NCBI GenBank assembly: GCA_043815665.1
Contig: JBDRIT010000025.1
Location: 145,490 to 209,489, forward strand
DNA: 64,000 bases
DNA from: Pseudomonadota bacterium
GTDB lineage: Bacteria > Myxococcota_A > UBA9042 > CAIXZC01
Reading direction: 5' to 3'
The first letter of the stretch is position 1, and each line of letters begins with the position of its first letter. The notes beneath the pieces are model-generated. The model was not told the DNA's origin. It did not search any database and saw only the letters and a list, made by a program, of their open reading frames with translations. Shown here piece by piece: positions 17,973-22,176 of the stretch. Position numbers and translations under genes: made by a program.

Positions 17973-18536
17973 TCAGCCGGCGAAGCTGTAGTCCTCGACC
18001 TTCGGGCCCCGGCGCAGAACGAAGTAGCTCACGAAGACCCGCCACTTCGGACCCACCGCGGCGTAGGCCTTCCCGAGATAGAGATCCTTGTCGTCGGGGT
18101 AGACCCGGACCAGGTAGTCCCGCAGGGGGCCCGGGTTCCAGACGGGGTTGCGCGGCGTGTCGTAGTTGATCAGCACCGCGTTGGGGTAGAGGTCGTCCAC
18201 CTCGTCGTCCCGCACCGGGTAGACCCGGAAGAACGAGTGGCGATGCACGGCGCCGCCCTTCACCACCTGCTCCCAATGCTCCGTCACGCCGCCGGGAGCG
18301 ATGGTGACGTTGTACCCGCCGATCTCGCCGGCCCCCGCCTTGGGGTCCTGGAAGAAGCCCTTCTGGAACCGGCGGATGCCGAGGAGCGGGGTCAGGTCGA
18401 GGGTGTTGAAGCCGTCGAACTCGAAGCCGACGAGGTCGTCGAACTCCGGCAGGCTGCCCTGGAGAAAGATCTTCTCCAGCGCATCGTTGCCCAGTGTGCA
18501 GATCTCAGCGTAGCCATAGCGCGGGTTGTTCTTCAT
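17973..18536 (-). CDS. Hypothetical protein (187 aa), co-transcribed downstream of the epimerase
   Basis: ORF with coding-like codon usage 22 nt after the epimerase stop. No domain recognised. Confidence 0.5.
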   Translation of the reverse strand: MKNNPRYGYAEICTLGNDALEKIFLQGSLPEFDDLVGFEFDGFNTLDLTPLLGIRRFQKGFFQDPKAGAGEIGGYNVTIAPGGVTEHWEQVVKGGAVHRHSFFRVYPVRDDEVDDLYPNAVLINYDTPRNPVWNPGPLRDYLVRVYPDDKDLYLGKAYAAVGPKWRVFVSYFVLRRGPKVEDYSFAG

Positions 18537-18558
18537 GATGATCTCCTCTCCTCGGGTC

Positions 18559-19644
18559 CTAGACCCGCCCCCCAGTCTGGTACCAGCGCAGGGTGCCCTC
18601 GAAGGCCATGCGCGCGTCGGGATACTTGAACCGGTAGCCCGTCTTGTGCAGCTTCTCGTTGGCGTAGGACCAGTCCTCCTTCAGGTACGCGATCATCGCG
18701 GGCTCCACCGGCGGCTTGACGTGCAGCACGTCCCGGGTCAGGTGGAACACCCCCCACAGCACCGGCAGGAGGCCGGTGATCAGCTGCTTGTAGGGCACCG
18801 GCGGCAGCTTGAAGAAGGGCTTGCCGAGGATCCGGGCCAGGGCCTGCATGAACTCGACGTTGGTCATGATCGTGTCGTCGTTGAGGTTGAAGACCTCGTT
18901 GGCGGCGTGCTTCTGGCTGGCCAGGTAGATCGCGGCGCCGGCGACGTCTTCGACATGGATGAAGGGGATCCGGCCCGTGAAGTTCGACGGGATCACCACC
19001 ACGGGCATGTCGATGGGAGCGGAGAACATCTGCCGGGCGCCGTAGCCGCCCCGGGGCCCATAGACCGTGGTGGGGCGCAGGATCGTGTAGTCCAGGAGGC
19101 CCTGCTTCCCGTAGTCCATGACCAGGAACTCCTGCTCCCACTTCGAGCGGATGTAGTCGTTCTCGGGCTGGGGGGCCAGCTCCTCGTCGAAGGTGGGCAC
19201 CTTCCGCGCCGAGGGTGAGCCGTAGACACCGCCCGCACCCCACTGCACGAAGCGCCTGAGTTTCGGGCTGGTCTTCAGCACGTGCTCGATCAGGTTCCGG
19301 GTCCCCTCGACGTTCACCTTGCGGAGCGCCTCCAGGGTCGCCGAGTAGCTGAAGATCGCAGCCAGGTGGAACACGTAGTCCACGTTGCCGGGCAGGAGAT
19401 CCACCGAGCGCGGGTCCGTGAGATCGAACTCGATCGTCTGGTCCGCCCAGCCCCGCACCAGGGTCGGGTAGCGGCCTGCGACGACGTCGTCCTTCTCCCA
19501 CCCCGACGGGTGATCCGCCGCGATGACGTGATGGCCGGCCGCGTGGAGCTGCTCCACCACGTGGCTGCCGATGAATCCACATGCCCCTGTCACCAGGGAA
19601 CGCGGGGGCTTCTGGTCCGTCGTCTTTGTCCGGGGCGTAGCCAT
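18559..19644 (-). CDS. NAD-dependent epimerase/dehydratase (extended SDR)
   Basis: GxxGxxG Rossmann motif LVTGACGFIGSHVV. Start ATG at 19644 preceded by ccaggagggtgtc. The track ORF's upstream 25 codons are discarded. Confidence 0.8.
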   Translation of the reverse strand: MATPRTKTTDQKPPRSLVTGACGFIGSHVVEQLHAAGHHVIAADHPSGWEKDDVVAGRYPTLVRGWADQTIEFDLTDPRSVDLLPGNVDYVFHLAAIFSYSATLEALRKVNVEGTRNLIEHVLKTSPKLRRFVQWGAGGVYGSPSARKVPTFDEELAPQPENDYIRSKWEQEFLVMDYGKQGLLDYTILRPTTVYGPRGGYGARQMFSAPIDMPVVVIPSNFTGRIPFIHVEDVAGAAIYLASQKHAANEVFNLNDDTIMTNVEFMQALARILGKPFFKLPPVPYKQLITGLLPVLWGVFHLTRDVLHVKPPVEPAMIAYLKEDWSYANEKLHKTGYRFKYPDARMAFEGTLRWYQTGGRV

Positions 19645-19675
19645 GACACCCTCCTGGTCTGTTGGTTCTGGGGCC

Positions 19676-19704
19676 AGAATAATTGGTTGAACCAATTTTG
19701 TCAA
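19676..19704 (-). promoter_or_regulatory. Sigma70-like promoter (TTGACA - 17 nt - TATTCT) for the epimerase operon, with an embedded perfect 8-1-8 palindrome AATTGGTTcAACCAATT (plus strand 19681-19697)
   Basis: Minus-strand read: TTGACAaaattggttcaaccaatTATTCT, ~31 nt upstream of the ATG. The palindrome fills the spacer and touches the -10 element. Confidence 0.45.
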
Positions 19705-19752
19705 CCGCTTTCGACGCAATGCGTTGTGATACTCGCGTCAGAGCCGGTCGCG

Positions 19753-20640
19753 TCAGGCGATCCGACGGCGTCGCAGGGCGAGGGGGAGGACCAGGAGGAA
19801 GAGCAGGAGCCCTGACCCCAGATCCGAGCGGGACCCCATGTCGCAACAGCAGCTCTCCTTGGGGCCGCCACCCTCGACCTCGAAGGGCTCGGGATTGGGC
19901 TCGATGACGAGATCGGGCCCGATCTCGGAGTCGGCTTCGGGCTCGGGCTCGGGGGGCGCGTCGCTGCAAGAGAAGAGGGTCCGGTCGTAGACCGCGCAGA
20001 CGCCGTCGAGGTCATCCTGCTGAGGTTCCAGGGGGTTGTCATCAGCCAGGTAGATGTCCCCATCGGAGTACAGGATCGAGTCCGGGTCCTCGGAGTGAGC
20101 GAGGCCATAGACGTGGCCCAGCTCGTGGGCGACGGCGAAGCGGTAGTCCACGACGTCGTCGGGATCAACGCCCTCGGTGTCGAGGCCGAAGTCGAAGCCG
20201 TCCTCGTTGATGTCGATGTCCACGTCCCCCAGATATCCCGTGGAGGGAAGGTAGTTCAGCACCGTCAACATCGCAGCGCCGTTGTAGTCCGGGTGCGCCA
20301 ACGCCCAACCGGAGGGGGACACCACGATGCAGTTCTGCTCTTCCCCGGGAAATGCGGGCTTGTGGACCTCGCAGCCGCCGTCCACCCCGTCGAGGATCAG
20401 CCGGATATCCGTGCAGGGATTCGCATTCCAGAGATCCATCGCGTCTTCGAAGAGGGTGAACTCCTGCATCCCCGGGATCGATTCGATGCCGGCAGGGTTG
20501 TACTGGAAGGCGATGGAGCAGGGCCCACCGCTCTTCCAGCGTACGGTCTCGCCGCTGGACTCGGAGGTGTAGTAGACCCAGGCCTCGGCCGGGGACGGGA
20601 CCAGGAGGAGCGCCACCAGGATCGCGGCGGGGGCCTTCAC
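19753..20640 (-). CDS. Secreted metzincin-type zinc metalloprotease with C-terminal MYXO-CTERM sorting tail
   Basis: HELGHVYGLAHS (HExxHxxGxxH). The C-terminus ESCCCDMGSRSDLGSGLLLFLLVLPLALRRRRIA is a MYXO-CTERM tail. The GTG start at 20640 overlaps the upstream gene's TGA (GTGA). Confidence 0.75.
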   Translation of the reverse strand: MKAPAAILVALLLVPSPAEAWVYYTSESSGETVRWKSGGPCSIAFQYNPAGIESIPGMQEFTLFEDAMDLWNANPCTDIRLILDGVDGGCEVHKPAFPGEEQNCIVVSPSGWALAHPDYNGAAMLTVLNYLPSTGYLGDVDIDINEDGFDFGLDTEGVDPDDVVDYRFAVAHELGHVYGLAHSEDPDSILYSDGDIYLADDNPLEPQQDDLDGVCAVYDRTLFSCSDAPPEPEPEADSEIGPDLVIEPNPEPFEVEGGGPKESCCCDMGSRSDLGSGLLLFLLVLPLALRRRRIA

Positions 20641-21458
20641 ACCATCCTCCGCCGTCTCGTGAGCATGGCGATCCCTGCGAGGAGCAGGAGCACCCCGGAG
20701 CCCGACGCCGATTGGCTTGCGGCGGTGCAGCTCGGGTTGGACGCGGGACCCGGGGGTACGTCGGGGTCGTCCACCCACAGGTCCAGCTTCTGGACCTCCT
20801 CGCAGGTGGTTGCGCCTCCGGTGAGAGGATAGAGGGTGCAGAGCCCGTCCACGTCGTCCTTGTCCAGGGTGCGCTTCACGGTCTCTCCGAACACCGAGTA
20901 CTCGTACATGGTGGCCTTGACCTTGTTGCTGTGGTCCAGGCCCACGATGTGTCCCGCCTCATGGGTGATGGTGTTCTGGATGTCGATGTCCCCAGGGTCC
21001 ATGTCCGGTCCCCCGGCCGTGAACTCGTAGTCCTCCGCGTTGAGCTCGATGTCCGCGTCGAAGATCACCCCGGTCACGGGGTTGTAGGTCACACTGGTGA
21101 AGGCCACGGGGCGCTGGTCGTAGGGCCAGTCCTCCTCGTGGAAGATCACGATGTTGGCGTTGCCCCCGTAGCTGGTGTACCCGATCCATTGCATGTTCGT
21201 GAGGCCGCCCCAGACCATGGTGAACCCAGAGCACTCCTCCGCGTTCCAGGTCTCCAGGGACAAGCGAATCGCCTCGATGTCCGAGCCGTCGTCCACGTCC
21301 GCCGAGCCGTCCAGGTACGCGTAGACCACGTGGCAGAGGTCAGGCCAATGGAGGCCCGCCCCCTTGGACGAGTTGGACTGGACCCAGGCCGGGACGGGAG
21401 TGGACCATGCGAGGACGGCGAAGAACACCAGGCCTGTGGCTCCGGCGCGCGCCGTCAC
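20637..21458 (-). CDS. Secreted metzincin-type zinc metalloprotease paralogue with MYXO-CTERM tail
   Basis: HEAGHIVGLDHS plus a Met-turn (ATMY). The C-terminus NPSCTAASQSASGSGVLLLLAGIAMLTRRRRMV is a MYXO-CTERM tail. The GTG at 21458 overlaps the upstream TGA. The 174-codon Arg/Gly/Pro-rich N-terminal extension of the track ORF is rejected. Confidence 0.7.
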   Translation of the reverse strand: MTARAGATGLVFFAVLAWSTPVPAWVQSNSSKGAGLHWPDLCHVVYAYLDGSADVDDGSDIEAIRLSLETWNAEECSGFTMVWGGLTNMQWIGYTSYGGNANIVIFHEEDWPYDQRPVAFTSVTYNPVTGVIFDADIELNAEDYEFTAGGPDMDPGDIDIQNTITHEAGHIVGLDHSNKVKATMYEYSVFGETVKRTLDKDDVDGLCTLYPLTGGATTCEEVQKLDLWVDDPDVPPGPASNPSCTAASQSASGSGVLLLLAGIAMLTRRRRMV

Positions 21459-21973
21459 CGGGTCGCCCCACCCTTCAGGCGGTCCCGGAGCGCGTCCTCG
21501 CTGATCCGATCCGGCGCGCCGTCCGCGGGCTGACCGACGAAGTGGATGGCCCCGAGGTCGCGGACCAGGACCCTGCCCTCGGGCCCGTCCTGGACCCGGA
21601 AGACCCCCTGGGCCATGCCGGTGACCACGTAGCCCGAGGATCCCTCCCGCAGGCAGAGCACCAGCTCCTCGCCGGAGCTCAGGCGCGCCGCGCCGGTCAC
21701 GATCTGGCCCAGGTCCGCGGTCTCTCCGCCGAGAGTGACGACCACGAGCTCGGTCGCTGCGGGCCCCTTCAGGGCTTCCCGCACCGCGAACCGATGCCGG
21801 GTGGAGATCCGGCCCCGCGACTCGTCGAGGACCGCCTCGGAGCCGATCACCTCGCCCAGGACCACGCGGTCGGAGCGCTCGATGATCTCGTCCAGGGTCA
21901 TGGGGGCGAAGACCGCTGCGTGGGCGGGAGACATCACGGTGAGGAGCAGGAGGAGGAACAGGAGCGGACGCAT
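21455..21973 (-). CDS. Small secreted hypothetical protein, first gene of the metzincin operon
   Basis: Signal peptide MRPLLFLLLLLTVMSPAHAA. Translationally coupled to the downstream protease genes. Confidence 0.6.
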   Translation of the reverse strand: MRPLLFLLLLLTVMSPAHAAVFAPMTLDEIIERSDRVVLGEVIGSEAVLDESRGRISTRHRFAVREALKGPAATELVVVTLGGETADLGQIVTGAARLSSGEELVLCLREGSSGYVVTGMAQGVFRVQDGPEGRVLVRDLGAIHFVGQPADGAPDRISEDALRDRLKGGATR

Positions 21974-22176
21974 GGGACACCTCCAGTCACGGGGCCGGCC
22001 CCGAGCATCTTCGACATTCTAGCGTGAAATCGGCCCGGTGTCAGCGGGCCGGCGCGTTCCCTCACCCGCAGCGGAAGGAATCTCTCCTTGCCCGCGTGGG
22101 GAACAAGGTTTAGTTTACTCCGTTGGCTCTATATTGATCAGTTTTGATCGAGTTTGATGAAGTGCCGGAGGAAGAG

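Follow-up and report, generated by a model that had tools for sequence, protein, structure and literature searches.

What controls the small operon read from a promoter at positions 19676-19704 of the 64,000-nucleotide stretch of DNA analysed here (the window)? The spacer of this promoter is filled by a perfect palindrome, which the first-pass annotation took for a repressor operator. The locus thus raises two questions: whether the palindrome would be bound by a repressor, and to which family such a protein would belong. The elements concerned are as follows.

19699-19704, minus strand: -35 hexamer TTGACA (promoter scan; TTGAC invariant in seven orthologous promoters)
19681-19697, unstranded: perfect 8-1-8 palindrome, predicted operator of an FCD-domain (FadR-subfamily) GntR protein (sequence, conservation and motif class)
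19676-19681, minus strand: -10 hexamer TATTCT (promoter scan and ortholog alignment)
19667-19671, minus strand: predicted transcription start region (promoter geometry only)
19650-19655, minus strand: Shine-Dalgarno sequence AGGAGG, 5 nt before the ATG (AGG invariant in the alignment)
18559-19644, minus strand: first gene, a 361-aa extended SDR of the NAD-dependent epimerase/dehydratase family (Pfam PF01370, E = 1.6e-37)
17973-18536, minus strand: second gene, a 187-aa protein with a predicted lipocalin-like beta-barrel (AF2 model and Foldseek)

A conserved palindrome in the promoter spacer

The promoter scan returned TTGACA-17-TATTCT with a score of 10/12, the two hexamers being separated by 17 nt, within the 16-18 nt demanded of a sigma-70-type promoter. 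The palindrome, AATTGGTT(G/C)AACCAATT (on the minus strand of the window AATTGGTTCAACCAATT, 19697-19681), occupies spacer positions 2-17, with a single A at 19698 (minus strand) between it and TTGACA, and its final T doubles as the first base of the -10 element (19681). These coordinates confirm the initial description of a palindrome lying inside the spacer of a consensus-like promoter and overlapping the -10. The local AT-richness also reported there is equally clear: only eight of the 29 bp are G or C (28%, vs. about 66-67% across the window), and A or T is found at 12 of the 16 bases of the two arms (AATTGGTT and AACCAATT). The ATG of the epimerase gene (19644, minus strand) lies 31 nt past the promoter and palindrome, and the geometry predicts a transcription start near the A at 19669, 7 nt past the -10, giving a transcript that would cover both genes.

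How readily might such a palindrome arise by chance? Whatever their sequence, perfect 8-1-8 palindromes are nothing out of the ordinary, with four in the window compared to a mean of 2.46 in shuffled windows. An AT-rich one (at most two G/C per arm), on the other hand, was seen in only 1 of 200 shuffles. When up to three mismatches were allowed, the 17-mer occurred once in the 64-kb window and in none of 100 shuffles, and its 8-base core, TGGTNNNACCA, has no second copy in the window.

To look at conservation, the upstream regions of seven orthologs (53-92% protein identity) were aligned; the loci retrieved included the syntenic L001-L005 (84-92% identity) and four, L006, L141, L142 and L143, with a different genomic context (53-76%). 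The only invariant columns in the seven promoters are TTGAC, A.TGGTT.AACCA.TTA (which covers the operator together with positions 1-2 of the -10), the final T of the -10 and, in the ribosome-binding site, AGG. This AGG apart, conserved blocks in the orthologous intergenic regions are confined to the two promoter hexamers and the palindrome. The -10 element itself appears as TATTCT, TATCCT, TATGCT, TATCTT or TAGCCT, with T1, A2 and T6 fixed and positions 3-5 variable, as would be expected of a working sigma-70-type -10. The core TGGTTNAACCA is retained in promoters whose flanks have fully diverged; its sole change is at the symmetric centre base, which switches between C and G among the orthologs and is neutral for the palindrome. 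The alignment thus has the clear appearance of a footprint of a promoter plus a predicted protein-binding dyad. The motif was absent from the 220 nt upstream of more distant loci carrying the epimerase and 187-aa genes (about 43-47% identity), and the regulation would therefore be lineage-restricted.

These data make it very improbable that the palindrome is a chance occurrence, or simply an AT-rich spacer of the promoter, to which no protein binds. Such an explanation can draw on the frequency of palindromes in general (about 2.5 per shuffled window) and on the presence of the exact 17-mer inside coding regions elsewhere, but it accounts neither for the rarity of AT-rich palindromes among the shuffles nor for a core that stays unchanged, apart from its centre base, amid diverged flanks.

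We also considered a role at the RNA level, either as a terminator or attenuator of the matrixin-like gene upstream or as a 5′-UTR structure. The element does lie 55-70 nt past the stop codon of that gene, on the same strand, and could form a 7-bp AU-rich stem. However, its predicted fold is no better than that of shuffled sequences (z = -0.55), there is no G+C-rich stem, AUUCU follows in place of a run of U residues, and the terminator scan made no call. Moreover, the palindrome is upstream of the predicted transcription start of the epimerase mRNA. We therefore rejected an intrinsic terminator or other RNA hairpin as highly improbable.

A further, semi-conserved block resembling ACGCAnnGCGT (ACGCATTGCGT, CGCAnnGCG; 19714-19724, minus strand) lies about 10-20 nt upstream of the -35. 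Its CGC..GCG is retained in six of the seven orthologs while the surrounding sequence diverges, and its role might be that of an UP-like element or of an additional regulatory site.

The gene pair and its surroundings

The first-pass annotation placed a two-gene operon at 17973-19644. The gene pair stands, with one correction to its internal boundary: the epimerase coding sequence ends at 18559 rather than 18533. The 187-aa open reading frame begins 22 nt past the epimerase stop codon, and the next gene, encoding a CPBP/Rce1-like protein, is convergent, limiting the operon to two genes. The epimerase and 187-aa genes are adjacent in more than 40 loci.

The SDR scored far under the cut-off of all NCBIfam equivalogs, with sub-threshold similarity to thioester reductases, HpnA, GalE and SdmB. 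The 187-aa protein had no match in Pfam, NCBIfam or the PDB sequence profile; it has a confident AlphaFold (AF2) model (pLDDT 92.6), and the top Foldseek matches of this model are all lipocalins, albeit weak ones (TM about 0.4, E about 1e-3). No record was returned when the window's own 187-aa sequence was looked up for an identical protein. The family is widespread, with 219 confirmed metagenome stretches. Its relatives (P0001-P0026 and L140-L219) are found solely in metagenomes and metagenome-assembled genomes (MAGs), under the source names Polyangia, Deltaproteobacteria or Myxococcota. The partner gene is an SDR epimerase in most loci, a GMC oxidoreductase in L009 and a FabD-like acyltransferase in L011; this variety hints, by inference only, that the substrate may be a small molecule, either hydrophobic or a carboxylate.

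Upstream on the same strand are two matrixin-like (Peptidase_M10) genes in tandem (19753-20778 and 20637-21980, both minus). The product of one ends in a Cys-rich stretch (CCC) followed by a hydrophobic helix and RRRRIA, that of the other in RRRRMV; these tails resemble C-terminal sorting signals of the MYXO-CTERM kind. A promoter-like CTGACA-17-TAGAAT (10/12; 22016-22044, minus strand) precedes the 172-aa gene with which the matrixin cluster begins and is divergent from a gene for a ribosomal protein S1-like protein.

Motif class and linkage to FCD-type GntR regulators

The operators of FadR-subfamily GntR proteins have been described as A/T-rich palindromes with TKGT/ACMA boxes and a GT-N3-AC spacing (Suvorova et al. 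2015, PMC4494728). The window palindrome shows all of these features, with A/T-rich arms carrying the two boxes and TGGT-TNA-ACCA at 19684-19694 leaving 3 nt between GT and AC. It is also identical to the E. coli PdhR box, AATTGGTnnnACCAATT (PMC7660256), at all 14 of the 14 specified positions and, like that box, would be the binding site of a GntR dimer with FCD domains. We checked the E. coli site AATTGGTAAGACCAATT directly in the MG1655 sequence (L139). In contrast to the PdhR box, the window box admits only TNA as its central triplet. The D-LldR operator of P. fluorescens, AATTGGTAtTACCAATT, which has been proven by experiment (PMC6731338), has the same 8-1-8 dyad with AATTGGT/ACCAATT arms and differs from the window palindrome only at the innermost arm base, and the E. 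coli lldP site, AATTGGCCCTACCAATT (PMC10272880), resembles it as well.

PdhR targets are pdh or respiratory genes, whereas those in the window encode an extended SDR and a lipocalin-like protein, and the E. coli pdhR site is downstream of its own promoter, not in the spacer. LldR and D-LldR are GntR/FadR repressors relieved by a small acid (PMC6731338; PMC10272880); the window operon has no lactate genes, and the D-LldR operator lies at +11 to +27 in P. fluorescens rather than in the promoter spacer.

Linkage to regulator genes points to the same family. In a Polyangia MAG (L013/L014), a 259-aa gene with GntR and FCD domains is located directly 5′ of the epimerase and 187-aa homologs, with AACTGGTTAAACCACTTAACCAGT between a TTGACA-17-TACCTT promoter and the ATG of the regulator. 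A scan of JGI metagenomes with the 187-aa family yielded 80 loci, and the order GntR(FCD)-epimerase-187aa was found in L013/14, L145, L149-151, L153, L156, L162, L166, L168 and L204, the JGI examples ranging in G+C from 0.41 to 0.74. In all such clusters with upstream DNA on the contig, TGGTTNAACCA or TGGTTTGACCA is present just upstream of the GntR start, frequently with a third half-site. Across 714 kb of related loci, 24 of 29 TGGTNNNACCA cores are at these promoter positions. Extra half-sites and autoregulated operons with the transcription factor gene first have already been described for FadR-subfamily GntR proteins (PMC4494728). The regulator-linked loci are similar to these described systems in having extra half-sites and tandem sites beside the palindrome; the window lineage differs in that its regulator gene no longer adjoins the operator that it presumably serves, and in that the regulated genes are uncharacterised.

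We also scanned GTDB species genomes for the exact 17-mer AATTGGTTNAACCAATT, which returned at least 120 loci, most of them in AT-rich genomes and probably chance occurrences. Among the matches listed, an FCD-GntR gene was found within 250 bp of the 17-mer in 8 of 120 cases, compared to 0.29 expected (Poisson P = 9e-10); neighbours were found with an HMM of FCD-GntR proteins and the expectation was taken from the remainder of the same loci. The eight are from Nitrospirales, Desulfobacteraceae, Desulfosarcina, Christensenellaceae, Clostridium, Agromyces, one further chromosome and a Myxococcota MAG (L034). The epimerase pair was at none of the 120 matches listed, and the genome of the window is not among them. 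The regulator promoter in L034 repeats the window design (TTGACG, CGG, ATTGGTTCAACCAGT in the spacer and TTTAAAT), with a second operator, AATTGGTTCAACCAATT, 19 bp further on. The exact 17-mer also precedes a lactate permease-GntR operon in L080. Its occurrence before both the L034 regulator and this operon indicates that the box is common to several orthologous groups, and the effector cannot be deduced from the motif by itself.

In Agromyces cavernae (L118, 1-120), an FCD-GntR gene has two operators just beyond its 3′ end, AGATTGGTTCTACCAATC and AATTGGTTCAACCAATT, separated by about 60 bp, which extends the use of this box to Actinomycetota. In two high-GC Polyangia/delta MAGs (L126, 2600-2616, and L134, 1392-1408), the 17-mer falls within protein-coding genes, one crotonase-like and one BirA-like. 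Such occurrences are coincidental, and an exact match alone is therefore no proof of function.

Could the site belong to a regulator of another family (TetR, LacI, Xre, MerR-like, etc.), its likeness to a GntR box being coincidental? We consider this quite unlikely. Short AT-rich palindromes are common to many regulator families and the window itself has no GntR gene in its 64 kb, but the same core tracks FCD-GntR genes both in orthologous clusters and, at the 8 of 120 exact-motif loci listed, in unrelated phyla. A MerR-type spacer operator was rejected on geometry: it needs an overlong spacer of 19-20 nt, compared to the 17 nt seen here. Assignment of the regulator to the FCD-containing, GntR/FadR family, which the repressor-operator reading of the first pass did not include, is thus the most likely one from motif and gene linkage.

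A candidate regulator in trans and a model for repression

No GntR-family gene was detected in the 64-kb window or in the syntenic loci L001-L012 by tblastn with the L013 regulator as query, and the predicted regulator would therefore act in trans. Homolog look-ups produced P0038, P0047 and P0059, which were discarded as trans regulators because they came from unrelated samples. Relatives of the L034 regulator are, on the other hand, present in the ENA sample series ERZ247946xx, home of the closest relatives of the window. One of them, P0099, is downstream of holA and is followed, before a gene cut by the contig end, by two operators in tandem (AGATTGGTTGAACCAATTA and CCATTGGTTCAACCAATCT) with a spacing of 19 bp. 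In the case of the other, P0103, three tandem operators precede a GntR - 203 aa - GMC oxidoreductase operon identical in type to that of L034. The operators at both loci are tandem copies of ATTGGTT(G/C)AACCAAT, and P0099 and P0103 are plausible candidate regulators for the window operon. They cannot be assigned to the organism of the window, given a mismatch in G+C (0.70-0.73 vs. 0.67-0.68), a single sample shared at similar coverage and the contig breaks at the P0099 locus. There, three independent assemblies (L220-L222) end about 90-130 bp past the paired operators (5845-5880 in L220), sharing a break about 80 nt into the downstream gene, whose product starts MATTIEHPLGP...; the common break suggests a repeat or strain variation.

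The closest match to P0099 among sequences of solved structure is the DNA-binding domain of PdhR (5kvr, E = 1.2e-11). Orthology of the linked regulators to PdhR was nevertheless rejected, as NCBIfam sets its PdhR cut-off at 330 bits, compared to 64 and 67 bits for the regulators of L013 and L034. More generally, the linked regulators are not PdhR, LldR, NanR or GlcC equivalogs (52-99 bits vs. cut-offs of 260-330). The window thus shares with the PdhR regulon its box, but neither an orthologous regulator nor pdh or respiratory targets.

The operon type of P0103 and L034 is recurrent in Myxococcota. It consists of an FCD-GntR gene, a 193-203-aa protein with no Pfam match and a GMC oxidoreductase (L034, 3078-5945, minus strand; L223, 5001-7939; L224, 4232-7170), is preceded by two to three tandem TGGTT(G/C)AACCA operators, and may be in the same regulon as the window operon.

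Taken together, the conservation of the site, the pairing of its target genes in more than 40 loci, the FadR-subfamily motif and the linkage to FCD-GntR genes elsewhere support the original proposal of a repressor operator, and the palindrome is probably the operator of a GntR/FadR-family repressor in the promoter of the two-gene operon. According to this model, a dimeric FadR-subfamily GntR protein, with a winged-helix DNA-binding domain and an FCD effector domain, would bind the dyad. Since the dyad lies within the spacer of the sigma-70-type promoter and touches the -10, the bound repressor would exclude RNA polymerase and so block transcription, until binding of a small-molecule effector to the FCD domain released it. 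In more distant lineages the cluster begins with the regulator gene, which has an operator of this kind in its own upstream region; in the window lineage no such gene is adjacent, and the regulator would therefore act in trans.

We infer repression, as opposed to activation, from the position of the operator. Some FadR-family proteins are transcription activators, the E. coli annotation gives FadR and PdhR as dual regulators ('dual regulator PdhR'), and the motif and linkage evidence is equally compatible with an activating or dual role for the bound FadR-subfamily GntR protein. This is unlikely here, however, in view of the geometry: a dimer centred in the 17-nt spacer and touching the -10 covers the face that RNA polymerase needs, and known activation sites are at or upstream of about -40. 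With its -35 already close to consensus, its spacer optimal and TAnnnT in place, the promoter should moreover need no activator.

A broader scenario is possible, although we put it forward only tentatively. The operator could be a remnant of an ancestral autoregulated GntR-epimerase-lipocalin-like operon, whose regulator gene has since relocated in this lineage. A paralogous FCD-GntR protein would now serve the site and have, as a further target, an operon of the type GntR - small protein - GMC oxidoreductase (seen in L034 and L223-225), the whole making up an undescribed Myxococcota regulon for the processing of hydrophobic small molecules via a new lipocalin-like family with no Pfam model.

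The kind of regulatory site proposed here is well known, a textbook case of GntR/FadR-type promoter occlusion, and the mechanism is not new. The less ordinary part is the 187-aa protein family that it would regulate. The conserved operator could serve both as bait for the regulator and its effector, and, given a complete genome, as a motif for delimiting the regulon. Through it, this widespread, uncharacterised family would be tied to FCD-type regulators as well as to its SDR partner, a linkage that points to an inducible pathway whose metabolite would be a small carboxylate or hydrophobic.
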